From: Hormoscilla sp.
GTDB taxonomy: Bacteria > Cyanobacteriota > Cyanobacteriia > Cyanobacteriales > Desertifilaceae
Assembly (NCBI GenBank): GCA_051439505.1
Contig: JBFRWI010000230.1
Span: forward strand, 1 to 31,341
Direction of reading: 5' to 3'
DNA: 31,341 nt
The position numbers and the translations under genes were made by a program. Each line of letters begins with the position of its first letter. The stretch's first letter is position 1. Below are positions 1,185 to 31,341 of this stretch, one piece after another. The notes beneath the pieces are model-generated. The model was given only the letters and a program-made list of their open reading frames with translations. It had not been told where the DNA came from and did not search any database.

Positions 1185-4100
1185 ATGCAAGTTGAAAACC
1201 CACCCATTCAGATCGCTCCGACGTCGCGCACTGCGTATTCGATCTCATTACAAGCTGCCATTGACCCTCATCCCCTGACGGTGGCCCCATCCACTCCGGT
1301 AGTAGAGGCGATCGCCCTGATGAGTCAGTCAGCTAGCAGCTGCCGATTACCTCATTTAGTTCATCCTGGGCTGCACGAACCGCGACCTAGTTGCGTGTTG
1401 GTGCTGTCGGGGACCGACCTCGTAGGGTTGTTAACCGAACGGGATATTGTCAGATTTGCTGCTAGCGGGATGAACTTACAAGGGATCGCTGTGGCCGATG
1501 TGATGACGCCCAACTTGATTACCCTGAGAGAATCTGATTTTACCGATATTTTCACCGTACTGAATCTGTTTCGTCAGCATCGGATTCGCCACTTACCCAT
1601 ACTAGACGATCGCTCCCGTGTCCTGGGGATTGTTACACCCAATCGCATTCGCCAACTGCTACAACCAGTTTACCTGCTGGAGTGGCGACGGGTAGAGGAG
1701 GTGATGACAATAGATGTCATCCGGGCTACAGGAGACGCCTCGTTACAAAAGTTAGCAAAACTGATGGATAAGTATCGGGTCAGTTGTGTAGTTATCGTGG
1801 AAGAAAATACTGACAATATAATTATTCCCGTCGGCATCATTACACAGAGAGATATTGTCCAATTTCAGGCTCTGGAGCTGGATTTTCTCAAGGTCAGGGC
1901 GCTTGAGGTGATGAGTTCGCCGCTATTTTGTTTAAACCCTGCCGATTCTTTATGGACAGCCCACCAACAGATGCTGAGCAGGCGGGTGCGGCGCTTGGTG
2001 GTGTGTGACTCCCGAGGAGCGATCGCAGGAATTGTCACTCAGACTAGCTTGCTGCTCGCCCTGGATCCTACTCAAATGTATAGCACGATCGAGGTATTGC
2101 AGCAAGAAGTTCGCCAACTCCAGGCGGAAAAAGTTGAACTCTTGGAAAACCGGAATCTGGAACTGGAAAAACAATTGCAGGGGGGCAGGGCCTTGCTGGA
2201 AACCCAGGCTGAGTTCGATCGCCTCTTACATACGATAGCTCAGAAGATTCGTCAATCTCTGAATAAGGAGTCAACTCTCAACACCACGGCAGTAGAGGTG
2301 CGGCAGTTGTTGGGGACCTCACGGGTATTGATTTATCGTTTCGATCCCAACTGGAGTGGAACTGTAGTGGTGGAGTCAGTAGATGAGCGATTTTCTTCCA
2401 TGCTAGGGCAAGAAGTCCACGACCCCTGTTTTGCTAAAATCTGGGTCGAACCCTACAAAAACGGTCGCATCCAAGCCACGCCGGATATCTACAGCGCAGG
2501 ACTGACTAAGTGTCACGTTGACTTCCTAGCTCAGTTTCAGGTAAAAGCCAACTTAGTAGTCCCCATCTTACAAGGAGAAAACCTCTGGGGATTGCTAGTT
2601 GCCCAGCAATGCGATGCCCCACGACAGTGGCAGCCTGTAGAAATTGAGTTTCTACAGAAATTGGCAACCCAAGCGGCCATTGCCATCAAGCAGGCGGAAC
2701 TTTACCAGCAAGCCCAAACAGAAATTATTCAGCGCCAGCGCATAGAGGAGTCCTTGCAGCGAGAGCGCGACTTTGCAGCTGCTGTCCTGGATACGGTTGG
2801 CTCTTTAGTGGTGGCGATCGATCGACAGGGACGAATTGTCCGTTTTAATAAAGCCTGTCAGGAAATCACCCTCTATGAGTTCGAGGAGGTCAAGGATAAA
2901 TACTTTTGGGATTTGTTCTTAATTCCCGAGGATATGGAGCCAGTTAAAGCAGTCTTCCAACAACTGCTTGCAGGTCATTTTCCCCAACAGCAAGAAAACT
3001 ATTGCTTAACCAAAGAGGGATCGCGCCGACTGATTGCTTGGTCTTACACCGCCTTGCTCGATCGCGCTGGTGCCGTTGAATATGCGATCGCCACTGGCAC
3101 GGATATTACCGATCGCTTCCAGGCGGAGTTGGAGCTGTTAAAACTGAATCAGGAACTGGAAGACAGGGTGCAGCAGCGCACAACTGACTTAATGAATCTC
3201 AATCAGGAATTATTGCACGAGATTGCCATTCGCCAGCAAGCGGAAGCCGCCCTGCGCGCCAGCGAGGAACGATTCCGCGCTATCTTCGAGCAGGCTGCCG
3301 TTGGCATGGTCGAAGCTGCTTTAGATGGTAGGTTTGGACGGGTTAATCAAAAGTTCTGTGACATTGTTGGTTATTCGGCAGCCGAACTGCTGAGGAAAAC
3401 TTTTTTAGAAATTACCTACCCTGATGACATCGGGCCCGATAAGCAGTATGTCGAGCAGTTGTTGGCCGGGAAAATGAAAACTTTCTCGATGGAAAAGCGT
3501 TATATTCGCCCAGATGGGAAGATCGTCTGGGTGAATCTCACGGGCTCCCTGGTGCGCAAACCTTCTGGAGAGCCTGACTACTTCATTGCTGTGGTTGAAG
3601 ATATTAACTATCGCAAAGATGCCGAGTCAAAGTTGCGGCATAAATCTGACGCCTTAGCCAATTTTAGTACCAATCTGAAAAAACTGCATCGGCTCAATAC
3701 AACTACTTATCAAGATTTGGCCGATTTATTTGCTGATTATCTGCAAACAGGATGTGAAATATTCGGACTGCCTACGGGCATAATTACTGAAATGGATGGG
3801 CGATCGTACCTGCTACGTCACGTTGAATCTGATTGGCAATTCCTAGAAACAGAAGGCAAGGGATCGTTAACAGATCGGGAGCTATGTAGATCTGCGCACC
3901 GCAAGGAAAATACATTTTCCTTTTATCTGAGCGCGCCCATATCTGTCAATAGCAAGAAATACGGAAAATTAATTTTTTACTCGATGGAAGTCGCGAGCAG
4001 AGAAATTGAGTCCTACGAACGGGAAATTCTGGACTTGATGGCCCAAAGTATTGGCAGGTTCATAGCTGCTCGTCAAATGGAAATAGAGCGGGAGCAAGCA

Positions 4101-5588
4101 ACGGCGGCCCTGCGGGAGAGTCAGCGCTTGATTCAACGCATTGCCGAGTCAACTCCGAATATTTTATATTTGTACGATCCGATTGAGGAGGCTAATGTCT
4201 ATGTCAATGGGGGCATCACCGAGATCCTGGGCTATACTCCAGAAGAAGTGCAAAAAATGGGTAGCCAGCTGCTGCATAATCTGATGCACCCCGATGATTT
4301 GGCTAAACTCCCCGAACATATGCAAAGGTTTGCAACCGTCTCAGATGACGAGATTCTAGAAATAGAGTACCGGATGAGAGATGCTTCCGGTGAATGGCGC
4401 TGGTTACACAGTCGGGAGACAATATTTACCAAAACTGGAGAAAATCAGCCTCAGCAGATCCTGGGCACGGCTACGGATATTACCGATCGCAAGCGAGCAG
4501 CGGAGCAGTTGCAGCAGGCAAATGAGCAACTGACTAGCAAGGTGCAGGAACTGGAACAACATAACCAAGAGATGGCTTTGCTTGGGGATCTCAATGAGTT
4601 TATGCAAGCCTGCATGACGGTCGAAGAAGCTTACGAGGCGATCGCCACTCTGATTGTACCCCTATTCCCGGGCTGTGGGGGAGGGCTGTTTATGATTAAT
4701 TCTTCAAACAACTTGGTGGAGGCGGTTGCTGAGTGGGGAACTCTTGAGAACAGTTCTACTATGTTTCTGCCTAATGAATGTTGGGGACTGCGGCGCGGTC
4801 GGGTGCATTTTGTCGAACAGCAGCGTCCGGGTTTGTTCTGCAAGCATGTCCGGAATACTGCCAAAGGGCATGCTGAGGCGACGAGGGCAAACTCTATGCC
4901 GACGGAGTCTCTCTGCGTGCCGATGATGGCCCAGGGAGAAACTTTGGGACTGCTTTATTTGAGCGCTCAAGATCCGCAGGTATTGACGGCAGCTAAACGG
5001 CAATTGGCCCAGACGGTTTCCGAACATATTGGTCTGGCCTTGGCGAATTTACAATTGCGGGAAACTCTTCAGCAACAGAGTATTCGCGACCCCCTCACTG
5101 GTCTATTTAATCGACGTTATATGGAAGAGTCCCTGGAACGGGAGTTGCGACGGTGCGATCGCAACAAGCAACCCCTGAGTATCATTATGTTGGACGTTGA
5201 CCATTTCAAGCATTTCAACGATACTTTTGGTCACGAGGCCGGGGATGCGGTTCTGCGAGAGTTGGGCCTGTTTTTGCAACAAAATATCCGTGACTCCGAT
5301 ATTGCCTGTCGCTACGGGGGTGAGGAGTTGATGTTGATTCTGCCAGAAGCATCATTACATGATACCGAGCAACGAGCTGAGCAGCTCCGGGAAGGAATTA
5401 AGCGGCTGCGCGTACAACATCGCCGTCAGCAACTGGGCGTTGTGACGGTATCTTTGGGAGTGGCTTGTTTTCCCAAACATGGCCCCACAGGAAAGGCGGC
5501 GATCCGAGCTGCTGATGCAGCGCTTTATCAGGCTAAAAAAGCAGGGCGCGATCGGGTGGTCACGGCAAGTGATACTTTGACCCTATAG
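1185..5588 (+). CDS. Diguanylate cyclase: 4xCBS, DXCF cyanobacteriochrome GAF, PAS, PAS, shortened GAF, PAS, GAF, GGDEF
   Basis: CBS motifs (LVGLLTERDIV, VGIITQRDIV); GAF with DPCF and CH; PAS/PAC ends (DITDR, EDINYRK); C-terminal DPLTGLFNRR...DVDHFKHFNDTFGH...RDSD...RYGGEEL. Confidence 0.93.
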   Translation: MQVENPPIQIAPTSRTAYSISLQAAIDPHPLTVAPSTPVVEAIALMSQSASSCRLPHLVHPGLHEPRPSCVLVLSGTDLVGLLTERDIVRFAASGMNLQGIAVADVMTPNLITLRESDFTDIFTVLNLFRQHRIRHLPILDDRSRVLGIVTPNRIRQLLQPVYLLEWRRVEEVMTIDVIRATGDASLQKLAKLMDKYRVSCVVIVEENTDNIIIPVGIITQRDIVQFQALELDFLKVRALEVMSSPLFCLNPADSLWTAHQQMLSRRVRRLVVCDSRGAIAGIVTQTSLLLALDPTQMYSTIEVLQQEVRQLQAEKVELLENRNLELEKQLQGGRALLETQAEFDRLLHTIAQKIRQSLNKESTLNTTAVEVRQLLGTSRVLIYRFDPNWSGTVVVESVDERFSSMLGQEVHDPCFAKIWVEPYKNGRIQATPDIYSAGLTKCHVDFLAQFQVKANLVVPILQGENLWGLLVAQQCDAPRQWQPVEIEFLQKLATQAAIAIKQAELYQQAQTEIIQRQRIEESLQRERDFAAAVLDTVGSLVVAIDRQGRIVRFNKACQEITLYEFEEVKDKYFWDLFLIPEDMEPVKAVFQQLLAGHFPQQQENYCLTKEGSRRLIAWSYTALLDRAGAVEYAIATGTDITDRFQAELELLKLNQELEDRVQQRTTDLMNLNQELLHEIAIRQQAEAALRASEERFRAIFEQAAVGMVEAALDGRFGRVNQKFCDIVGYSAAELLRKTFLEITYPDDIGPDKQYVEQLLAGKMKTFSMEKRYIRPDGKIVWVNLTGSLVRKPSGEPDYFIAVVEDINYRKDAESKLRHKSDALANFSTNLKKLHRLNTTTYQDLADLFADYLQTGCEIFGLPTGIITEMDGRSYLLRHVESDWQFLETEGKGSLTDRELCRSAHRKENTFSFYLSAPISVNSKKYGKLIFYSMEVASREIESYEREILDLMAQSIGRFIAARQMEIEREQATAALRESQRLIQRIAESTPNILYLYDPIEEANVYVNGGITEILGYTPEEVQKMGSQLLHNLMHPDDLAKLPEHMQRFATVSDDEILEIEYRMRDASGEWRWLHSRETIFTKTGENQPQQILGTATDITDRKRAAEQLQQANEQLTSKVQELEQHNQEMALLGDLNEFMQACMTVEEAYEAIATLIVPLFPGCGGGLFMINSSNNLVEAVAEWGTLENSSTMFLPNECWGLRRGRVHFVEQQRPGLFCKHVRNTAKGHAEATRANSMPTESLCVPMMAQGETLGLLYLSAQDPQVLTAAKRQLAQTVSEHIGLALANLQLRETLQQQSIRDPLTGLFNRRYMEESLERELRRCDRNKQPLSIIMLDVDHFKHFNDTFGHEAGDAVLRELGLFLQQNIRDSDIACRYGGEELMLILPEASLHDTEQRAEQLREGIKRLRVQHRRQQLGVVTVSLGVACFPKHGPTGKAAIRAADAALYQAKKAGRDRVVTASDTLTL

Positions 5589-5625: not shown

Positions 5626-6627
5626 ATGACAAATCCCCGTGTTTTGTGTTTGGGTGAAATGTTATTCGATCTGTTAGCAGATCGACTCGGACTGCCCCGA
5701 GAACAGCTGCAGTCTTGGACTGCTTATCCGGGAGGGGCACCAGCTAATGTGGCCTGTGCCTTGGTGAAGTTGGGGACATCAGCTGGGTTTATTGGTTCTG
5801 TAGGCGCGGACGAACCGGGAAATTCTCTGGTGCAGTTGTTGCAGGATGTGGGAGTGGATGTTACGGGAGTGCAGCGCCATCCGACAGCACCCACCCGCCA
5901 GGTTTATGTGCTGCGTGATGCTAAGGGCGATCGCACTTTTGCCGGGTTTGGGGACATTCCGACTACAGATTTTGCCGATGCTTATTTACAAGCGGATAAG
6001 ATTCCTGTATCTTTATTTGCTGATGCTGATTTTCTGGTATTAGGGACTCTGGAACTTGCCTATCGGGAAACGCGGGTAGCCATTGAGAAAGCAATTGGGC
6101 TAGCAGAACAGTACGATGTTAAGATTATGTTAGATGTAAATTGGCGTCCCGTGTTTTGGTCTCACCCTGAAGATGCCCAACGGCGGATCCAAGCATTGTT
6201 AAAGAAAGTTGATTTCCTGAAAGTCTCTGATGAAGAAGCGGACTTCCTGTTTGGCACCCAGGATGCGGGGGCGATTAAATATCAGCTTGATGCGGTTGAG
6301 GGCGTTGTGGTGACGGCGGGCGATCGGGAGGTGTCCTACTGTCTGGGAGGAAATGAAGGGAAGCTATCTGCTTTCTCGGTGGATGTTCGAGATACGACGG
6401 GGGCGGGAGATGGCTTTATGGCTGGTTTTATTCATCAGCTTTGTCTCCGGGGCATTCAATGCTTGAAGGACTCCCAGACTGCTGCCGATATAATTACCTA
6501 TGCCTGTGCTGTGGGGGCCTTGACTGCCATGAAACCTGGGGCGATCGCATCTCAGCCCACCGCTGCGGAAGTAGAAGCTTTTCTGGCTAATTATGTTAGT
6601 CTGAGATCTGGCACCATTCTAAATTAG
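5626..6627 (+). CDS. PfkB-family carbohydrate kinase (fructokinase-like)
   Basis: PGGAPANVA, DVNWRP and DTTGAGDGF PfkB signatures. Confidence 0.92.
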   Translation: MTNPRVLCLGEMLFDLLADRLGLPREQLQSWTAYPGGAPANVACALVKLGTSAGFIGSVGADEPGNSLVQLLQDVGVDVTGVQRHPTAPTRQVYVLRDAKGDRTFAGFGDIPTTDFADAYLQADKIPVSLFADADFLVLGTLELAYRETRVAIEKAIGLAEQYDVKIMLDVNWRPVFWSHPEDAQRRIQALLKKVDFLKVSDEEADFLFGTQDAGAIKYQLDAVEGVVVTAGDREVSYCLGGNEGKLSAFSVDVRDTTGAGDGFMAGFIHQLCLRGIQCLKDSQTAADIITYACAVGALTAMKPGAIASQPTAAEVEAFLANYVSLRSGTILN

Positions 6628-6739
6628 TCTCCTGGCCCGCCGGGGGTTAAAACCCCCGGCTAACAGCTAAAGCCCGCCGGGGGTTAAAACCCCCGGCTAA
6701 CAGCTAAAGTGGGTTAAAACCCACTGTCCGCATTGTCGA
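6601..6739. repeat. Double-hairpin dispersed repeat (family B) with internal 37-bp tandem duplication
   Basis: CCCGCCGGGGGTTAAAACCCCCGGCTAACAGCTAAAG at 6636-6672 and 6673-6709, then GTGGGTTAAAACCCAC; inverted homolog at 28481-28589. Confidence 0.8.
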
Positions 6740-6770
6740 TAATTTGATAAAATTATTAAATTAGAAGGGA

Positions 6771-6837
6771 GAAACAGGGTTTCTACGCTCTGCGATCGCG
6801 TTCGATATTCTAGCTGCGACCAGAAACCCGGTTTCTT
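6771..6837. repeat. Pair of AGAAACCGGGTTTCT-type short palindromes around a HIP1 site
   Basis: GAAACAGGGTTTCT and AGAAACCCGGTTTCT; related AGAAACCAGGTTTT near 19967. Confidence 0.55.
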
Positions 6838-6942
6838 GACTGACTAGAGTTGGGCGATCGGCTCTAACATCTGCTATACTAATCTTAACTTTGCTAGTTT
6901 TGGTCTGATAATGACCGGTTCACTGTTACCAGAGGTGAGACA

Positions 6943-7599
6943 ATGCAACTGGAACTGAATCAATTGATTATACCACCAGGTCAGGAATTGTTGCTGAAAA
7001 ATATCACCTGGCCGATGTTTGAGAATATTTTAGATGAGTTGGGCGAAACTCGTGCAGCTCGCTTGTCCTATAGTAAAGGAATGTTGTCGATCGTGACCCC
7101 CCTGCCAGAACATGAAGATGATAAAGGAATTATCGGAGACTTTGTCAAGGCCCTTCTGGAAGAACTGGATATTGAATTTCGGGATCTGGGTTCTACCACC
7201 TTCAAAAAGGAAAACATGGCCCAGGCGGTAGAAGCGGACGTATGTTTCTATATCGAGAACGAAGCCCAGATCAGAGGGAAGAAGCGGATAGACTTAAATG
7301 TAGATCCTCCTCCCGACTTGGCAATTGAAATTGACATCACCTCCCGCACTAGGTTTGATAATTACGAAGGGTTAAGAGTGCCGGAAATATGGCGATATAA
7401 CGGACGCAAGCTGGAGATAAATGTGCTGCAAGGATCTGAGTATATTGAGTCGGAAGTTAGCCCCCATTTTCCCGGTCTCCCGATAGTTGAGGTGATGCAT
7501 CAGTATCTGGAACAAAGTAAAGTAGTGGGCAGGAATGCTACAATGAAAGCATTCCGCAATTGGCTGAGAGAACAACTAAACAGGAAAGATGGCAACTGA
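6943..7599 (+). CDS. Uma2 (DUF820) family endonuclease-fold protein
   Basis: LGSTTFK, EADVCFYI, PPPDLAIEIDITS and VPEIWRY motifs; GAGG upstream. Confidence 0.92.
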   Translation: MQLELNQLIIPPGQELLLKNITWPMFENILDELGETRAARLSYSKGMLSIVTPLPEHEDDKGIIGDFVKALLEELDIEFRDLGSTTFKKENMAQAVEADVCFYIENEAQIRGKKRIDLNVDPPPDLAIEIDITSRTRFDNYEGLRVPEIWRYNGRKLEINVLQGSEYIESEVSPHFPGLPIVEVMHQYLEQSKVVGRNATMKAFRNWLREQLNRKDGN

Positions 7600-12365: not shown

Positions 12366-12499
12366 GTAGGGTGGGCACCGCCCACCAAAACTTGCGGTAA
12401 CTGCAACAAAGGGTCTTTATTCATGCACCGATGTAGGCGTAGGGTGGGCACCGCCCACCAAAAATTGCGGTAAGAAAGGATATTTATTCATGCACCGAT
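12366..12499. repeat. Two GTAG REPs in a ~73-bp tandem duplication at the RAYT 3' end
   Basis: GTAGGGTGGGCACCGCCCACCA at 12366 and 12439, each followed by AAA.TTGCGGTAA...TTTATTCATGCACCGAT. Confidence 0.85.
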
Positions 12500-13059
12500 C
12501 GGGCAATTTCGGTAAAATCTGGTATTTGGGGCTGTCTACCATCACAAGTGCAGCACCAATCAACAGGATACGCACCTTTTCTCACCCAGGAGTGAAAACT
12601 GGAATAAGACCATAAATGGGGACAGGAGACCAAACCATGCTTGACAGGATTATAATGAATATAGTTGAGATGATGTTCGAGGTCTTTTTCGTCCTCAATG
12701 GTATGTTCCCAAAAACGCCGATTCCAAACATCACTTTCTCGGTGCTTGCGGCGTGAACTGGACACATTCTGAGGTAAGGCACGTCGTCCGCGCAAAGAAT
12801 GAGTAAATAAAATTTTAATTCTTCCGACCCGCTTAGAATAGGCAGTGTCTAAGGGAGGCAAAGTCCATAAAAAGTGAATATGATCGGGTAATATGACAGC
12901 CCCAAGGATATTAAAAGGCATCTCAGATTTAATTGTAGCTACAGCTGTGCGTAGTCGCGAGACGTTTTCTGGATCCGCAAACAGTGGCTGGCGATTGTAG
13001 GTGACAATGGTAAAGAAAAATGTTCCACCTGGCACATAATTGCGGCGGTATTCAGGCAT
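12484..13059 (-). mobile_element. REP-associated tyrosine transposase (RAYT, HUH/Y1 family)
   Basis: GGTFFFTIVT, HUH motif LPDHIH, W.RRFWEH and catalytic YIHYNPVKHGLV; GTAG REPs on both sides. Confidence 0.93.
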
Positions 13060-23357: not shown

Positions 23358-23631
23358 TTTTTTATAGTTGAACCCTACTCTTTTAATATCTCTCTTTTTC
23401 CCTAACCCTAAGGCGATCGCGCTTATAGGTAATGTGTGATACAAATCATTGGTGCCGGTGATGGTAAACACGGCGGATCCTCGATAGATGATGTATAGAA
23501 AAGGGACTCAAGGCCCGATGATTGAGCAGTATCTATATAAGTAGAGTTAAGTATAATTTTACAGCAGTTGAGATCCTGGCGCGGCAGGAGATAAGATCTG
23601 CATAAAGTTGTTTTTACTGAAGCTTTGTCTT

Positions 23632-26106
23632 ATGACTCAAAGGCCGTCTCAATGCGAAAATCTGCCAGAACAGGTGGAGAAGATACTGGGACTATTGCAT
23701 GCAGAGCCATCTTTGCGCAGTCAGGATGTCTCCGCCGTGCAGGCGTCCCTGAAAAAGGCGATCGCGCCCAAGTTTGAAATCCTGTTTGCGGGTGCTTTCA
23801 GTGCGGGGAAGTCGATGTTAATTAATGCGCTGCTGGAGAGGGAATTGCTCTACAGTGCCGAAGGTCACGCTACGGGCACTCAATGCTATATTGAGTATGC
23901 CGAACCAGAGGCAGAACGGGTGGTGCTCACCTTTTCAAGTGCAGCGGAAATTAAAACCCAGGCGGTGGCTTTGTGTAAGGGACTGGGAATGTCTGCTGCT
24001 ACGGATATCGACGAGTCGGAAGTGGTCGAACTGCTGCGCAAAGGATGTAAAGCTATTATTCAGGCAGAGGGTGGGGAGAGTAAGTCGGAACGGGCGAAAC
24101 AGGCCCGAGCATTGCTGCTGCTGCTGTCGGGGTACGAGCAAAATCGCGATCGCATCCATCCTAGCAGCAATGCTACCTACTCTATGGAGCAATTTGATTT
24201 CTCGAATCTGAAGGAAGCGGCGAGTTATGCGCGACGTAGCAGTAACTCTGCTGTGCTGAAGCGGATCGAGTATTATTGCTATCATCCCCTGTTGCAGGAT
24301 GGCAACGTGTTAATAGATATGCCCGGCATTGACGCCCCTGTCAAGCAGGATGCAGAACTGACTTATCAGAAAATTGCCGATCCAGAAACTTCCGCAGTGA
24401 TCTGCGTGCTCAAACCTGCTGCTGCGGGAGATGTGACGACGGAAGAAACGGAACTGTTGGAGAATATCCGCGAAAACCCCGGCATTCGCGATCGGATGTT
24501 TTACGTCTTCAACCGCATTGACGAGACTTGGTACAATACCCAGCTGCGGAAAAGATTAGATGATTTAATCGGTTCTCAGTTTGCCGATAGCAGTCGGGTT
24601 TACAAAACTAGCGGTTTGTTGGGGTTCTACGGCAGTCAGATTAAAGGAACCAGCGGACGCGATCGCTTTGGGTTGGATTCTGTTTTTGCGGAAAGCGTGA
24701 AAAGCATGGACGGAGAGGAGGAGACGCCGCAATTTGTCTATGAGTTTAATCGCTACTGCACCTCTGGTAAACTTTCTCCGAGTAAATTTCGGATTTCGGT
24801 GAATGGTTTTGAAACTCCGAATCAGAATTACGTGCGGATAATGGCGGAACAGGGGACGGCCCTGATCTCACAGTTGATTGCAGATAGCGGCATAGAGGAA
24901 TTCAAAACTGCCATGACTCGCTATCTGACGGAGGAAAAGCGTCCCCAACTGTTTGCTAATCTCGCAGATGACTTGCAACCTCTATGCATTAGCTTGCGCA
25001 AGCATTATCTCAGCATGCAGCGGGATCTAGACAGTCAACCCCGGGAAATTGCCGGGATGAAGGCCCGGGAGTTAGAACAGCTGAACCAGCAGTTACAGCA
25101 GGTAGGATCTGCTTTTTATCAGCATGTGGAAGGGGAAGTAAATCAGGTGGTGACTAACCGCTGTCAGGACTTAGAATCTGATTTTGAGCAGATGCAATCT
25201 CGGATGGTGCGCCGCTTGGATGAGTTGTTAGATACTTTTTCCGTCCGATCGGCCTACGAACGCGCAACTCTCAGTCATCCCCGCAATGCTACTGCCCCCT
25301 TATTGGCGGTTTTGGTGGAGGCCCTTTACGCGATCGCGAACCAGTTGGAAGATATTTTAGTGGAAGCTTGTCAGTCAATTACGGCAGAATTTTTCCACGC
25401 TTTGCTGAAACGCATGCGCCAGGCAGAATATTATCGCGAGTTGTACCGACTGCTGGGCAATGATGGCGGGATCGAACAATGCCTCCAGCAGTTAGAAAAA
25501 CAGGTGACTCTGGCCCTGGCAAATGCGGCCCGGACAGAGTGCGATCGCTATGTGCGGGAAAGTCCGCGTTTTTACGACGAAGGCACCTTTTCCATTTATC
25601 AATTCCGGCAAACCTTGCTGCAAACCTCAGAAGGTTACGATGCGGAAAGTATCATTGAGGCGGAACCTGCCATTCGCCAACTGCTGAAGCTAGATTTTGA
25701 GCCGAAAGTTTCTGCTACAGTGCGGCGCAATTTCCGTCAGGTAATCAACCAAACTCTGAAAACTCAGTTGTTGCCAGCAGCAGCACAACAGCAAGAGGAA
25801 ATTTTGGGCCGATACAGTCAAGCGCGGGCATTTTTAGGGCAAACTCTGGAAAAAGAAGCAGAAGAACGGATCGCCAATAATCAGCGGTTGCTGAGTGAGG
25901 TCGAGCAAAAGATCGAACAGTATAATCAAGCGGTAGGGGGAATAAATGCTTGTCTGAAGGCCATGCAATTGGACCGCCATCAGTTGCCAATAATTGCAGA
26001 AGAAGAATTGCTGCCAGTTGATAATGGTTCAGAAGCAAACACGGCGATCCCCGACGCGATCCCCGACGGGATACCCGACGCGGCGATACCAGACGCGATA
26101 CCCTAA
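23632..26106 (+). CDS. Bacterial dynamin-like GTPase (SynDLP/KGK-clade type)
   Basis: G1 GAFSAGKS, G2 HAT, G3 DMPG, G4 NRID; long helical stalk; KGK genes downstream; ATG at 23632. Confidence 0.92.
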   Translation: MTQRPSQCENLPEQVEKILGLLHAEPSLRSQDVSAVQASLKKAIAPKFEILFAGAFSAGKSMLINALLERELLYSAEGHATGTQCYIEYAEPEAERVVLTFSSAAEIKTQAVALCKGLGMSAATDIDESEVVELLRKGCKAIIQAEGGESKSERAKQARALLLLLSGYEQNRDRIHPSSNATYSMEQFDFSNLKEAASYARRSSNSAVLKRIEYYCYHPLLQDGNVLIDMPGIDAPVKQDAELTYQKIADPETSAVICVLKPAAAGDVTTEETELLENIRENPGIRDRMFYVFNRIDETWYNTQLRKRLDDLIGSQFADSSRVYKTSGLLGFYGSQIKGTSGRDRFGLDSVFAESVKSMDGEEETPQFVYEFNRYCTSGKLSPSKFRISVNGFETPNQNYVRIMAEQGTALISQLIADSGIEEFKTAMTRYLTEEKRPQLFANLADDLQPLCISLRKHYLSMQRDLDSQPREIAGMKARELEQLNQQLQQVGSAFYQHVEGEVNQVVTNRCQDLESDFEQMQSRMVRRLDELLDTFSVRSAYERATLSHPRNATAPLLAVLVEALYAIANQLEDILVEACQSITAEFFHALLKRMRQAEYYRELYRLLGNDGGIEQCLQQLEKQVTLALANAARTECDRYVRESPRFYDEGTFSIYQFRQTLLQTSEGYDAESIIEAEPAIRQLLKLDFEPKVSATVRRNFRQVINQTLKTQLLPAAAQQQEEILGRYSQARAFLGQTLEKEAEERIANNQRLLSEVEQKIEQYNQAVGGINACLKAMQLDRHQLPIIAEEELLPVDNGSEANTAIPDAIPDGIPDAAIPDAIP

Positions 26107-26613: not shown

Positions 26614-27015
26614 ATGGAGATGGAAATGGAAGATAATATCTATTGGCACAACTTGAGTGATGATGATGTTTTGTCATTCGATCGGGGTGATTATACCTTC
26701 AGAGTAGGAAGATTTAAGCAATTATTAAAGCATACCTTAGATGGGAAAGGAGTAGGATACGAACTATTAAAAGAATTACAAGCTCTAGGCATAAAATTGG
26801 AAATGCCTAGAACTTCGACCGGGCAGCATCCCGAACGTGAAAAATGGTTTCTAGAAGGAGCAGATTGTGAAATAATGAAAACTAAGGAACCAGGCTGGAA
26901 AAAGGGTAAAATTCGCTTAAAAATCGCAATTGAGGTTTGGTCTGAGGAACCCGAAACCAGCGAACCGGAATCGCCCCTTGACGATCTGCGGCAAAAGCTA
27001 AGTGATGAGAATTGA
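26614..27015 (+). CDS. KGK domain protein 1
   Basis: WFLEGADCEIMK...GWKKGKIRLK...EPESPLDDLRQ. Confidence 0.9.
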   Translation: MEMEMEDNIYWHNLSDDDVLSFDRGDYTFRVGRFKQLLKHTLDGKGVGYELLKELQALGIKLEMPRTSTGQHPEREKWFLEGADCEIMKTKEPGWKKGKIRLKIAIEVWSEEPETSEPESPLDDLRQKLSDEN

Positions 27016-27042
27016 CAGTTCCGACTCAGGTAAAAATTGGCA

Positions 27043-27279
27043 ATGGTGACAATAACAGTTGATGTGAATAAGGTAGAGATGGGCTTAAAAGAGTTATTGT
27101 CTCTCGTGCGTGAAGGTACGGAAATTGTCCTGACTGAAGATAATATTCCCCGGGCCCGTTTAGAAGCGATCGCATCACAAACAGGGCCGCGTATTGCGGG
27201 ATTACATTTAGGGGAGATATGGACAAGCGATGATTTCGATCGCCCCTTACCTGACGAATTATGGACAGGGGGTGCATGA
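27043..27279 (+). CDS. Phd/YefM-like antitoxin with DUF2281-like C-terminus
   Basis: L.ELL..V..G.EIVLT....P.ARL followed by R.AGL..GEIW.SDDFD.PLPDE.W; no PIN toxin follows. Confidence 0.75.
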   Translation: MVTITVDVNKVEMGLKELLSLVREGTEIVLTEDNIPRARLEAIASQTGPRIAGLHLGEIWTSDDFDRPLPDELWTGGA

Positions 27280-27293
27280 TCTATTCTACCTAC

Positions 27294-27803
27294 TTATGAG
27301 GCTATGGATTGCCATCCACTGCCAGCGATCGGGAAAGGTGCAAGATGGGAGATATAACCCTTATCTCGTGCCATTTGGATGACAGTATCTAGAAACTCTT
27401 TTAACACTCCTAATACTTGAGAAAGATCGAGATTAAATTGCATCTGTTGGCAGCGATCGCCAACGCCAAACTTCCTGAGAGTGCAGCTAACTTCACCTCC
27501 CGCAGGCACAAACTCGATAATCATCCAACTTTCTGGAAAATCGATCTCAATCTTTTTCCCGCTAGCTAATTGGGATATTTTTTCGGGGAGTTCATTGAGA
27601 ATCAGAATAATATCGGGGTCTAAAAAGACATATTTTACCTCCCCAGCGATTCCGATCGCCACTTTATGATTGCATTCAAAGCAGAATTTTCGCAAGCTGA
27701 TTTCTAAATCATCAAGTTCTCCTAATGGGTCATCCGGGGGTTCCAGACCTGGCCATACCCAAGGTTCCGCTAATTGCAGCTCAAACTTTTGATAATTATT
27801 CAC
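27294..27803 (-). CDS. Hypothetical acidic protein
   Basis: 169-aa ORF, GTG start with GGAGG upstream; no recognised domain. Confidence 0.65.
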   Translation of the reverse strand: MNNYQKFELQLAEPWVWPGLEPPDDPLGELDDLEISLRKFCFECNHKVAIGIAGEVKYVFLDPDIILILNELPEKISQLASGKKIEIDFPESWMIIEFVPAGGEVSCTLRKFGVGDRCQQMQFNLDLSQVLGVLKEFLDTVIQMARDKGYISHLAPFPIAGSGWQSIAS

Positions 27804-27995: not shown

Positions 27996-28106
27996 TGATG
28001 ATATATTATAAATAACGGTAATCAGCTAACAATAGCATTTGTGTGGTATAATCTGCTGAGAGGACCGGCGAAAAGAGTTAGCAGGAAAATTGTACTGGAG
28101 GTTGAC
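27996..28106 (+). promoter_or_regulatory. Duplicated KGK leader with extended -10 (TGGTATAAT) and GGAGG RBS
   Basis: Homologous to 28591-28703 upstream of KGK3. Confidence 0.6.
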
Positions 28107-28451
28107 ATGGTAAACAAAATCACAAAATGTAGTGATGACACTGCTGTATCATTGAGTGATTATTCATTCAAGGTATCTCAATTGAAGGAAAAATTAATGG
28201 AGCAGGCATTCTCAGATAATAACCTAGGATACCTAGTTTATCAACAGATAAAAATGAGTGGCATTGATGGAAGCAATTACAATAATTGGTTTGGGGATGG
28301 TCTAGATGCTGAAATTCTTGTTCCAGGTGCCAAGGTATGGCAGAAAGGGAAAATGAGACTGAAAGTCAACGTGGAGGTAGAGTTTATCTCGGACGAACCA
28401 GAAACCACTAAACCAGAATCACCCCTGGATGACTTGCGTCAAAAGCTGTAA
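28107..28451 (+). CDS. KGK domain protein 2
   Basis: WFGDGLDAEILVPGAKVWQKGKMRLK...PESPLDDLRQKL; GGAGG before ATG at 28107. Confidence 0.9.
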   Translation: MVNKITKCSDDTAVSLSDYSFKVSQLKEKLMEQAFSDNNLGYLVYQQIKMSGIDGSNYNNWFGDGLDAEILVPGAKVWQKGKMRLKVNVEVEFISDEPETTKPESPLDDLRQKL

Positions 28452-28480
28452 GAGGAAAATGGACAGGGTTGACAGCTTTT

Positions 28481-28589
28481 TCGACAATGTTTGCAGTCGG
28501 TTTTCAACCGACTTTAGCTATTAGCCGTGGGTTTGAACCCACGGCGGGCCAGGAGACCAATTGAGAATGGTGCTGGTGCAAGATCTCAG
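28481..28589. repeat. Double-hairpin dispersed repeat (family B), inverted copy
   Basis: Reverse complement matches 6601-6739 (CTGAGATCT..GCACCATTCT.AATT.GTCTCCTGGCCCGCCG...GCTAA.AGCTAAAGT...CATTGTCGA). Confidence 0.8.
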
Positions 28590-28703
28590 TTTGATGCTAG
28601 ATTAGAAATAACGGTAATTAGTAAATAGGATCGTTCCTGTGGTATAATCGGCAGAGAGTACCCGGGAAAATAGTTAGCAGTAAAATTGTCTTGGAGGTTA
28701 AAC

Positions 28704-29039
28704 ATGGGAGACAAAATCACCATAAAAGGATGCAGTGATAAAGGTGTTTTTTCAAAGGGAGATATGACATTAAAGATATCTCAATTTATCGAAGATATGC
28801 AGAAATCATTTTCAGAGCATAATCTCGGAATACTGGCTAATAACAATATATGTATTGGTTCCGATCACAAAAAATGCTTGACGGATGGGATAGATTGTGA
28901 AATACTCGAACCAGGCAGAAAGGGATGGCAGAAAGGAAAAATTAAACTGCAAGTCAATGTGGAGGTAGAGTTTACCCCGTCCCAACCAGAAACGACCGAA
29001 CCAGAATCACCCCTAGATGACTTGCGCCAAAAGCTGTAA
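28704..29039 (+). CDS. KGK domain protein 3
   Basis: DGIDCEILEPGRKGWQKGKIKL...PESPLDDLRQKL; GGAGG before ATG at 28704. Confidence 0.9.
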   Translation: MGDKITIKGCSDKGVFSKGDMTLKISQFIEDMQKSFSEHNLGILANNNICIGSDHKKCLTDGIDCEILEPGRKGWQKGKIKLQVNVEVEFTPSQPETTEPESPLDDLRQKL

Positions 29040-29052
29040 GAGGAAAATTGAC

Positions 29053-29307
29053 ATGAAAGAAATAAAGAAAACTCCCCGGATAAAAATTCCCCCAGAGGTG
29101 CGGAAATATGTATTCTCTCGGGACTCTTACCAATGCCAAAGCTGTGGCAAAACCCATCAAGAAACAGAACTGACTATAGATCACATTATCCCCCTCGCCC
29201 GTGGGGGCACCAACGACATCAGCAACCTGCAAACCCTCTGCCGCAGCTGTAACCAGCAGAAAAAACATCACTTAGACCCCCGGTTTAAGCGCCATTTCAG
29301 TAGCTAG
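29053..29307 (+). CDS. Small HNH endonuclease (McrA-like, zinc-binding)
   Basis: RD..QCQSCG...IDHIIPLARGGTNDISNLQTLCRSCNQQK; ATG at 29053 after GAGG. Confidence 0.92.
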   Translation: MKEIKKTPRIKIPPEVRKYVFSRDSYQCQSCGKTHQETELTIDHIIPLARGGTNDISNLQTLCRSCNQQKKHHLDPRFKRHFSS

Positions 29308-29387
29308 ACAGGCGAGACGCCTGTCCTACGAAACGATTCCCGTCTTTGTTATAAAATTGATTAGCGCTGGACCAGAATAACAGGTTG

Positions 29388-31067
29388 ATGACACAAGAGG
29401 ATCCACTAGCTACCGCTATAACCCCGATCGCCGAGGTGACCGAACTAGCTGCACTTGCACCCCAAGATGTAGAAGAGGTCTCCCTCGAACAGATCAAAAG
29501 CGAAACTCTCCTCAGACTCAGGGATTCCTCGGATCGCCCCCGGGACTATCCCCCTGGAGAGGCGGTCCAGTCTGCCATGGCACGGTTAGTGCAGATCGTC
29601 TCCGAATTGCGATCGCCCGCCAGCGGTTGGCCTGCGGGAGTGCCTCAAACCCCAGAAAACCTGCTTCCCTACGTAGCAGAAGAAGCCTACGGAGTCTTAA
29701 ACGCTTTCACATCCTCCCAGATATCTGTAGAAACAGCCCCACATATCGATCTTTCCTGGGCCCCCTCCCAGTCGCCCGATCCCCCCAAACCCCCCTTAAA
29801 AAGGGGTGCTTCCGGAAGCCCCCCCTTTCCCAAGGGGGGGTTTGGGGGGGATCCCGCTACCACAAATGCAGACCACACCGGTCCAGATCTGCCCGGTTCC
29901 TTGTTATCTTCCCAATCCCCATATATTCTGATTGAAGGCTTAACCTTCCGACTGCTGTGGTACGTCGCCATAACTTCCTACGAACTGATGCAACTCATGG
30001 GCGGCATCAAAGCCAGAATCTTATCACCAGGAGAACAGTGGCAAACCGGAATTCTGCGACTGGCAGTCATTTTGGCAGCTGAAGCCTCCGATATCAATTG
30101 GTCCCTTGACCTAGTTACCAGTCAACCGGCTAAAACTTCCTTAAAGCCCGACTGTCTGATTCAATTACCAGCAAGGGAAACCTCCGAAACTCTCTCAAAT
30201 TTCACCCACCGACTGCTGCAACAAATTCAAGCTACCACCCCCGAAGTGAAAATCTTCGCTGAAACTGCCAGGGTTGACTTACTCCAACCGGGAAAAAATT
30301 GGCGACAAGCAGAAATTAAGCTCAAACTTGACTGGGAATTTATCGCCGACGATCCCTTTGCCATCGGAGATGATATCTCTACTCGTGGCGATCGCACCAT
30401 CAAATTCGCCGACCCCACCGCGATCGAAGTCTATTCCCAAAGCATTTTAACATGGGAATTAAGCACTGCTGTCGAGATGGTGCAAAGCATATATTATCGT
30501 CGCCATAGCTTGGGGGACGCACCCCATAAAACCCGATCGCTGCTGCTGAAATTCACCGAAACAGCAGTTGCCCTAGTCAACCGCTGCATGGAAAATCCCC
30601 TATACTTAACCTGGGGCCGAGAAATTCAGCTAGACAAATGGATCCCCCATCTGCTATGGCAGTTGACAGGGAGTTCCTACGACATCATGCGGTTGCTGGG
30701 GGGCGTCAAAGCCTATATTCTCCAACCTGAGTGGGGTTGGTGTCTGGGTACCCTGCGACTTTTAGCAGTCCTGAATATCAACCCATCTTTACAACTAGAT
30801 TTAGCCACAGGAGAACCTGTCAAACCCAGTTTCTTTTGGCTGATGAGTGATGGGATAATTGAATTAGCTGAAAGCGGTTTATCTAAAGAACCAGAACAAG
30901 TTGGAGATCTCCTGACTAAGTTGCTAGACCAAGTCCAAGCAACCACTCCCACTCTCAAACCATTCCTGGACGGTACCCCGATCGAATTACTAACCGCCGA
31001 TAAAAATTGGCAACCCGGACTACTTCAACTCAGCATCGACCTAGAATTCATTCCCGAAGATAATTGA
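29388..31067 (+). CDS. Hypothetical protein: degenerate MazG-like N-terminus plus internal duplication with four KGK-like motifs
   Basis: LVQIVSELRSP.SGWP...QTPENLLPYVAEEAYGV resembles the MazG N-terminus; two ~145-aa repeats, each with two 'IL.PG..W..G.L.L' motifs. Confidence 0.75.
   Translation: MTQEDPLATAITPIAEVTELAALAPQDVEEVSLEQIKSETLLRLRDSSDRPRDYPPGEAVQSAMARLVQIVSELRSPASGWPAGVPQTPENLLPYVAEEAYGVLNAFTSSQISVETAPHIDLSWAPSQSPDPPKPPLKRGASGSPPFPKGGFGGDPATTNADHTGPDLPGSLLSSQSPYILIEGLTFRLLWYVAITSYELMQLMGGIKARILSPGEQWQTGILRLAVILAAEASDINWSLDLVTSQPAKTSLKPDCLIQLPARETSETLSNFTHRLLQQIQATTPEVKIFAETARVDLLQPGKNWRQAEIKLKLDWEFIADDPFAIGDDISTRGDRTIKFADPTAIEVYSQSILTWELSTAVEMVQSIYYRRHSLGDAPHKTRSLLLKFTETAVALVNRCMENPLYLTWGREIQLDKWIPHLLWQLTGSSYDIMRLLGGVKAYILQPEWGWCLGTLRLLAVLNINPSLQLDLATGEPVKPSFFWLMSDGIIELAESGLSKEPEQVGDLLTKLLDQVQATTPTLKPFLDGTPIELLTADKNWQPGLLQLSIDLEFIPEDN
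29777..29879. mobile_element. Family A palindrome read in frame within the CDS
   Basis: GATCCCCCCAAACCCCCCTTAAAAAGGGG...GGGGGGGTTTGGGGGGGATCC...GACCACACC, encoding PDPPKPPLKRGASGSPPFPKGGFGGDP. Confidence 0.8.
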
Positions 31068-31086
31068 TATTGGTATAATTGATATG

Positions 31087-31108
31087 GTAGGGTGTGTACT
31101 GCCCACCA
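31087..31108 (+). repeat. Degenerate GTAG REP
   Basis: GTAGGGTGTGTACTGCCCACCA. Confidence 0.65.
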
Positions 31109-31125
31109 AGTCAATGTGTACATTG

Positions 31126-31227
31126 TTAGCCATTAGCAATTAGCAATTAGCAATTAGCCATTAGCAATTAGCCATTAGCAATTAGCCATTAGCAATTAGC
31201 CATTAGCAATTAGCCATTCACAGCCAT
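31126..31227. repeat. Heptamer tandem repeat TTAGC(C/A)A, STRR-like
   Basis: About 13-14 copies ending at the next start codon. Confidence 0.9.
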
Positions 31228-31228
31228 T

Positions 31229-31341
31229 ATGTATACTTACGCATTTATCAAAACTCCAGAAGTTCCTCTCAAATTACCCCAAGGGATCAAGGGTGATCTG
31301 GAACTTGTTACGGAAAAGCAAATAGCAGCTATTGTCGAACC
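31229..31341 (+). CDS. GvpL/GvpF-family gas vesicle protein, 5' part
   Basis: Not in the ORF track; MYTYAFIKTPEVPLKLPQGIKGDLELVTEKQIAAIVEP matches the Y.Y.F...LP.GI...IAA.VE N-terminal pattern. Confidence 0.65.
   Translation, partial: MYTYAFIKTPEVPLKLPQGIKGDLELVTEKQIAAIVE

Follow-up and report, generated by a model that had tools for sequence, protein, structure and literature searches.

A cyanobacterial protein family joining a MazG-derived helix pair to four KGK-like motifs, and its genomic association with a GvpL/GvpF-like protein

RESULTS

The locus and the reading frame

We analysed a stretch of 31,341 nucleotides from Hormoscilla sp. (GenBank assembly GCA_051439505.1, contig JBFRWI010000230.1, positions 1 to 31,341 of the forward strand), hereafter the window, which is one entire contig of a draft genome of 6.47 Mb. 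Its right-hand part carries, all on the + strand and in this order, a gene for a dynamin-like protein (DLP), three genes for free KGK-domain proteins, a small HNH gene, the gene studied here (29388..31067), which we call the MazG/KGK-like gene, and the start of a GvpL/GvpF-family gene. The DLP gene (23608..26106, 832 amino acids (aa); Pfam Dynamin_N, expectation value (E) 1.9e-16) heads the KGK genes. These lie at 26614..27015, 28041..28451 and 28686..29039 (Pfam KGK, E 1e-25 to 1e-29), and a search of the whole genome for free KGK genes returned these three matches, all at this locus. The stand-alone HNH nuclease gene (29017..29307, 96 aa; Pfam HNH_5, E 4e-24) overlaps the end of the third KGK gene and lies directly upstream of the MazG/KGK-like gene. 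Downstream, the contig breaks off within the GvpL/GvpF-family gene, of which the first 37 codons remain (31229..31339).

The MazG/KGK-like gene is a single open frame, 29385..31067 (+ strand), of 560 codons if counted from a TTG at 29385; residue numbers below follow this count. Translation probably starts at the ATG at 29388: the database entry is 559 aa long, and the corresponding Met opens the homologues (MTQ or MTE). From this ATG the gene is an intact open reading frame (ORF) of 559 aa and belongs to an unnamed cyanobacterial family. A promoter and terminator scan of 28400..31341 gave nothing exceeding chance, and no terminator on the + strand.

The N-terminus is derived from MazG

An earlier note, written from the sequence alone, had recognised the MazG N-terminal consensus at the start of this protein, with CPWD changed to WPAG and a Glu of EEXXE changed to Gly. 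Alignment bore out both observations. Residues 57-113 (29553..29723, + strand), forming a helix 1-loop-helix 2 unit, share 25/57 identities (44%, E 4e-12, BLASTP) with the MazG protein of the same genome (G000:C62, contig C62, 282 aa). In this alignment the MazG sequence G-C-P-W-D is replaced by G-W-P-A-G, and the third Glu of EEAYE by Gly103. A profile of 28 family members (A1, the window protein and 27 homologues) was then compared with an alignment of 19 cyanobacterial MazG proteins using hhalign: it matched with 98.7% probability (E 3.8e-16) over helix 1-loop-helix 2 only, and no alignment extended past helix 2. The same profile matched E. coli MazG (PDB 3crc/3cra) with E 1e-9. Applied to 401 genomes from the phylum, it found matches in 252, mostly to the resident MazG gene and at profile positions about 29-107 only.

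Despite this significant similarity, the window protein does not reach the curated MazG cut-offs. The NCBIfam model NF007113 aligned its profile positions 2-49 with residues 65-112 (E 3e-6) at 27.1 bits against a cut-off of 208, TIGR00444 scored 21 bits (E 2e-4) against 148.3, and Pfam MazG 12.3 bits (E 0.22) against 22. What is shared with the MazG proteins of E. coli and of the same genome comprises helix 1, the LRSP-G-x-P-W loop, the QTP turn and helix 2 (EEAYxV). In contrast, the window protein has neither the helix carrying ExxD nor a second MazG domain. As judged from these alignments, MazG homology is limited to residues 57-113, a remnant of the first two MazG helices.

In Sulfolobus solfataricus MazG the metal ligands are described as Glu35 and Glu38 (ExxE) on one helix and Glu54 and Asp57 (ExxD) on the next (PMC2954211). 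The first pair is incomplete in the window copy (Glu100/Gly103). For the second, no conserved acidic pair was found after residue 106 in 172 family sequences. Because Glu100 faces Gly103 and neither an alignable second helix nor a conserved acidic pair lies downstream, the MazG module of the window copy, to judge from its sequence, cannot form the MazG metal site on its own. The picture differs in the family at large, where Glu or Asp occupies positions 99, 100, 103 and 106 in 163, 167, 149 and 128 of the 172 sequences, and where the MazG-like motif also conserves R76, T89 and Y96. The exceptions are the window protein and its three closest relatives (P0003-P0005, 77-92% identity), in which position 103 is Gly and position 106 is Asn or Lys; in the window copy the latter is Asn106, against mostly Glu or Asp in the family. 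The suggestion of an inactive MazG module thus fits the window copy, with its Gly103 and missing ExxD helix, but cannot be carried over to the family, which mostly keeps the acidic residues of helix 2 and may bind a ligand or a metal.

We also looked for further MazG-like elements. A second hairpin in the protein centre (residues 355-405 against MazG 19-67) received 2% probability, and the central slice as a copy of the N-terminal MazG-like slice 5.4% (both hhalign); neither comparison supports a second MazG-like hairpin.

Two repeats, each of two KGK-like units

KGK-domain proteins (PF08872) are about 120 aa long and are encoded downstream of cyanobacterial DLPs of the KGK clade, such as SynDLP (PMC5827413, PMC10104851); the function of the domain has been termed enigmatic (PMC5827413). 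The two repeats of about 145 aa and the four KGK-like motifs that had been noticed in the window protein were both recovered. Residues 189-326 and 422-558 share 55/141 identities (39%, E 3e-27), and a weaker match is present within each repeat. Over the whole protein, Pfam KGK scored 40.8 bits (E 3.6e-10) in two stretches, above its gathering cut-off of 25.6.

The repeats can be divided into four units on the + strand: 1a (29910..30170, residues 176-262), in which the model described below places two short helices before a long beta-hairpin, 1b (30171..30374, residues 263-330), whose residues 274-324 match Pfam KGK profile positions 44-97, 2a (30621..30875, residues 413-497) and 2b (30876..31064, residues 498-560). 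The family alignment was sliced accordingly and each slice was compared with 34 aligned free KGK proteins that had been collected from genomes. Unit 1b matched with 96.9% probability (E 1.6e-10), 2a with 95.3% (E 2.4e-8), 2b with 95.1% (E 3.1e-8) and 1a with 68.9% (E 4.5e-5). Profile-profile comparison of the units with each other gave 91-99.9% probability, the highest value being that of 1a with 2a. The N-terminal and central helical slices gave no match to the free KGK alignment. Taken singly against Pfam KGK, the units performed less evenly (1b E 0.0013, 2b E 0.0012, 1a E 0.22, 2a no match).

All four units correspond to the C-terminal beta-hairpin half of the KGK domain and share with the free proteins the hairpin F-x-x-G-x-x-x-E-h-L-x-P-G-x-x-W-Q-x-G-x-h-R-L. 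They do not cover the full 119-position domain: the matched stretches are 44-97, 45-97, 58-90 and 59-96 in Pfam, or columns 67-103 of 126 in hhalign, and each unit spans only about positions 44-100 of the 119 in the profile. The Lys-Gly-Lys sequence is not kept either. Where the free KGK alignment has W-Q/K-K-G-K, the units have WQTGILRL, WRQAEIKL, WCLGTLRL and WQPGLLQL, so that KGK reads TGI, QAE, LGT and PGL. In addition, the C-terminal tail ESPLDD(L/I)R that free KGK proteins conserve is absent, and four units lie here within one protein of 560 aa. Because the units have neither the N-terminal half of the domain, nor Lys-Gly-Lys, nor this tail, ‘KGK-like motif’ is the correct wording, rather than ‘KGK domain’.

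Predicted structure

The AlphaFold2 model of the whole protein, built with A1, has a mean predicted local distance difference test score (pLDDT) of 78.3 and a predicted template modelling score (pTM) of 0.74. It places in succession the MazG-like helices 59-76 and 90-117 (pLDDT about 86-95), a disordered linker, units 1a and 1b, two long helices (344-374 and 380-403) and units 2a and 2b. Units 1a and 1b each have a pair of short helices, one long hairpin and short strands. The central pair of long helices (30375..30620, + strand) has no significant sequence match. A few structure alignments span residues 58-412, and from these we infer that the two helix pairs, N-terminal and central, pack together as one helical core. 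The second repeat folded alone, using 33 sequences, gave pLDDT 90.4 and pTM 0.83; of the 36 rows extracted for this alignment, L033 was dropped as broken and the near-duplicates L050 and L075/L006 were left out.

The earlier note had proposed profile and structure comparisons of these segments with KGK and MazG. The sequence profiles match both families in hhalign. No solved relative of the paired KGK-like repeat was found. Foldseek against solved structures gave a best E of 0.046 and template modelling (TM) scores up to 0.18, and VIA-align over 48,161 chains gave a best Z of 3.1, with no chain at Z >=5. A sequence search found no solved KGK structure, and a search of the ESM Atlas returned no usable match. 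With the whole model as the query, only generic matches were obtained for the central helical hairpin (Z up to 6.0, VIA-align), and no MazG chain appeared among the Foldseek and VIA-align matches listed for it.

Three apparent resemblances were discarded. Nucleotidyltransferase-fold chains recur among the matches of the paired repeat, at Z 2.1-2.8 only, too weak to use. PCNA chains, that is sliding clamps, occupied the top Foldseek rows for the whole model (E 0.012, TM 0.07-0.12), but none reached Z 2 in VIA-align, and the repeat folded alone gave no clamp match either. Profile positions 353-416 gave weak NusG rows (E 0.04-0.15), which were taken as chance.

An unnamed and widespread family

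A first search returned 30 homologues of 330-572 aa, all cyanobacterial where named. Their source names are ‘hypothetical protein’, with one ‘NTP pyrophosphatase’ (NTP, nucleoside triphosphate) and one ‘molecular chaperone’. Leaving out an identical copy and two partial sequences, 27 of them were aligned with the window protein to give A1, which recognises the window gene with E 1.3e-171. At E<=0.001 an exhaustive profile search returned 2233 proteins, and at E<=1e-30 it gave 221 clusters (50% identity), mostly of 500-650 aa. Among 401 sampled Cyanobacteriia genomes it is present in 94 (E<=1e-25), and in 50 of 170 genera. It is concentrated in few taxonomic families and is rare in the order to which the window belongs. 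A metagenome scan returned one distant relative only.

The window protein aligns with the family from end to end and shares its invariant residues L68, R76, Y96, E100, W192, R225, D242, W306, W425, W452 and D472. No Pfam or NCBIfam model covers the whole protein. A literature search, to whose coverage subscription journals did not belong, found no description of an architecture combining a MazG hairpin with four KGK-like motifs. By sequence, then, the window gene is an intact member of an unnamed and widespread cyanobacterial family.

A GvpL/GvpF-like protein is the most constant companion

The last 111 bases of the window (31229..31339) encode a segment 57% identical (E 5e-13) to the orthologue in genome G029, which itself matches PF06386 with E 2.5e-25; the remainder of the window's gene was not found in the assembly. 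Pfam analysis of 132 neighbouring ORFs identified a PF06386 gene (about 229 aa) immediately downstream and on the same strand at four homologue loci. With flanks of 1.5 kb, such a partner was present at 16/38 loci.

A profile of 14 GvpL/GvpF-like partners (A4) detected this subfamily in 212/401 genomes of the class at E<=1e-30, nearly always as one copy. The partner is present in 90/94 genomes positive for the MazG/KGK-like family; the four without a match are three drafts and the window genome, in which the contig stops within the gene. Coordinates were available for 89 genomes. In 33 of them the partner follows the gene directly on the same strand, the smallest gaps being 6-9 bp; in 5 it is divergent at a distance of 2.1-2.4 kb. 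Five genomes without adjacency were checked directly, and each has exactly one strong partner copy.

The Hormoscilla genome also carries a canonical gas-vesicle cluster, on contig C148, with GvpA-type genes and an equivalog-level GvpF. The partner is not the canonical GvpF, and its gene stands apart from those for gas-vesicle structural proteins. Prediction of a complex between the G029 orthologue and its GvpL/F-like neighbour gave a score of 0.00 against a mark of 0.32, which counts neither way on binding.

KGK arrays and the DLP accompany the gene in some lineages

Among 12 homologue loci inspected with 9-kb flanks, the whole DLP-KGK-HNH arrangement recurs only in G029, and apart from the window itself, G029 and one Hormoscilla record (L112) are the only places where a DLP lies near the MazG/KGK-like gene. 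Conserved synteny with the DLP is therefore not general. The gene is preceded by KGK arrays, up to 5-7 genes long and with the HNH gene behind them, in G411, G445, G428, G474 and G460, as well as in the taxonomic family of the window, and the order KGK array, HNH, MazG/KGK-like gene, GvpL/F-like gene recurs in two taxonomic families. At least seven family-positive genomes (G401, G402, G264, G404, G408, G080, G158) have no free KGK gene at E<=1e-8. The link to KGK and DLP holds only in some lineages, and the genomic evidence connects the MazG/KGK-like protein more closely with the GvpL/GvpF-like protein than with KGK or dynamin. We know of no mechanism for KGK-domain proteins and the cyanobacterial DLPs that form the KGK clade.

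The HNH gene occupies the same position in L007, L055, L061, L062, L063, L111 and L112. The HNH part of IscB is its best NCBIfam match (E 1.5e-18), and it is 69-96% identical across taxonomic families where the flanking gene is only about 34% identical, a pattern that suggests strong constraint or mobility. Free KGK genes often form tandem arrays of 3-7. Their ESPLDD(L/I)R tail follows an acidic linker (e.g. 28041..28451 and loci L076-L104) and resembles a short docking motif. At two loci of one taxonomic family (L034:10728-12668, L038:10908-12761), and only there, the homologue overlaps a Ser/Thr protein kinase gene immediately upstream of it.

The window copy and its nearest relatives

The window copy contains an in-frame insertion of 132 bp (29749..29880, + strand, residues 122-165), a dispersed palindromic G+C-rich repeat with inverted arms. 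It adds 44 codons and no stop; its site is the disordered linker that follows the MazG-like helices (pLDDT <50). None of the 27 aligned homologues has it, nor does the DNA of L111 and L112, the closest public genome records, both metagenome-assembled genomes labelled Hormoscilla sp. The same repeat was scored at 40 places in its own genome (87-96% identity), out of 223 candidates. Several copies stand at contig ends, so the repeat probably breaks the assembly.

Relative to the nearest record, L111, the gene has a synonymous substitution rate (dS) of 0.198 and a non-synonymous rate (dN) of 0.064, that is a dN/dS of 0.32 over 497 codons. The corresponding ratios of its neighbours are 0.17 for the DLP, 0.68 for the first KGK gene (KGK1, against the L112 orthologue), 0.09-0.30 for HNH and 0.13-0.28 for the partner. 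The breadth of the family and the ratio of 0.32 together speak for a genuine gene held under constraint.

DISCUSSION

A candidate scaffold acting with a GvpL/GvpF-family protein

The reading that we favour, and to which we give about an even chance, is that the protein is a non-catalytic scaffold or adaptor, made of a MazG remnant and two repeats of two KGK-like units, which would act with the GvpL/GvpF-family protein encoded downstream. We prefer it because the anatomy of the protein speaks for a non-catalytic role and its genomic tie is strongest to this partner. The first two MazG helices, retained as a remnant, would contribute part of a helical core; the N-terminal and central helix pairs would pack together as this core and carry the two paired beta-modules. 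Such a protein would not hydrolyse nucleotides. It would bind the single-copy GvpL/GvpF-like protein encoded directly downstream and, in the lineage of the window, perhaps the free KGK proteins as well, a pairing that the earlier note had also imagined.

Several observations weigh against this proposal. In 51/89 genomes the partner is encoded on a different contig or at some other site. It also occurs in 122 genomes without the MazG/KGK-like family, the reverse being rare, and therefore does not need the MazG/KGK-like protein. The co-occurrence is moreover overstated because related genomes are not independent samples; it is an association, not a test. The acidic quartet kept in most of the family is difficult to account for if the helix is purely structural, and points to binding of a metal, a nucleotide or a partner family-wide. 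Finally, the L111 orthologue (5917-7541) shifts frame near residue 272, next to an HNH gene with an in-frame stop, and the L112 orthologue (6001-6887) has frame changes and has lost some 660 bp separating units 1a and 2a; the deletion joint shows an 8-nt overlap, as if the two repeats had recombined. These defects could be those of pseudogenes or errors of long-read metagenome assembly. Since neither of the two nearest records holds an intact copy, the gene may be dispensable in the Hormoscilla lineage.

The acidic quartet leads to a different view of the helix pair, in which the protein is a ligand-sensing pseudoenzyme: the pair would bind a divalent metal and/or a nucleotide (such as an NTP or guanosine tetra- or pentaphosphate, (p)ppGpp), leave it unhydrolysed and relay the signal to the KGK-like modules with their partners. 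Conservation of E99, E100, E/D103 and D/E106, each kept in 128-167 of 172 members, together with that of R76, T89 and Y96, speaks for such a role, which we hold possible although doubtful. The ExxD half of the MazG site is however missing family-wide, and the window copy and P0003-P0005 (77-92% identical) have lost the acidic residues at 103 (Gly) and 106 (Asn or Lys) while retaining the rest of the protein. To go further and see in the protein an active MazG-type NTP pyrophosphohydrolase, regulated by its KGK-like domains, the missing half-site would have to come in trans, from a second copy or from the genuine MazG. Some MazG four-helix cores are indeed described as assembling only on dimerisation, with two helices per chain (PMC2954211), and one homologue was named ‘NTP pyrophosphatase’ by its source. 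Yet only about 57 residues are MazG-like and they score far under the family cut-offs, and the window copy has neither the second Glu of ExxE nor any ExxD; the failure of MazG to appear among whole-model structure matches is a result without verdict here. We regard catalysis as very improbable.

The state of the gene in Hormoscilla bears on another explanation, namely that in this lineage it is drifting to loss, an open frame with no selected function left. It would account for the in-frame mobile-repeat insertion, for the loss of two of the four acidic residues, for the broken orthologues of the two nearest records (a frame change in L111, a deletion and frame changes in L112) and for a dN/dS of 0.32 that exceeds that of the DLP (0.17). 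Against it, the 560-codon frame is open and the insertion is confined to a disordered linker, dN/dS is well below 1 and under that of KGK1 (0.68), and the three relatives with 77-92% identity are full-length. The broken copies come from long-read metagenome assemblies in which indel errors are possible. Drift to loss seems to us unlikely.

Returning to the scaffold with its GvpL/GvpF-family partner, a bolder extension can be imagined, which we put forward as a quite unlikely conjecture. The two proteins might belong to an unrecognised cytoplasmic assembly system, in which the paired KGK-like unit, a fold without counterpart among solved structures, would be a multivalent platform and a relative of gas-vesicle nucleation proteins would be reused outside flotation, some lineages further recruiting free KGK proteins and a KGK-clade dynamin.

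Whatever the function, the family demonstrates that a KGK half-domain has been multiplied and fused to the remnant of an enzyme, in about one quarter of the sampled Cyanobacteriia. It also draws attention to a single-copy GvpL/GvpF relative, tied to the family in organisms and at loci without gas-vesicle genes, and offers a defined two-gene module for study. A well-predicted domain (pLDDT 90) without a solved relative is a structural target in its own right. The gain is incremental: the parts are known domains and any function is only predicted.

Other features of the window

Two ORFs lie between the first and second KGK genes (27037..27803). One, of 80 aa, has a weak match to a VapB antitoxin (E 1.9e-4); the other, of 169 aa (27294..27803, opposite strand), matches no known family. 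Farther away, and unrelated to the MazG/KGK-like gene, the window encodes an IS200-like transposase (12484..13059) and a signalling protein of 1467 aa with CBS-GAF-PAS-GGDEF architecture (1185..5588).

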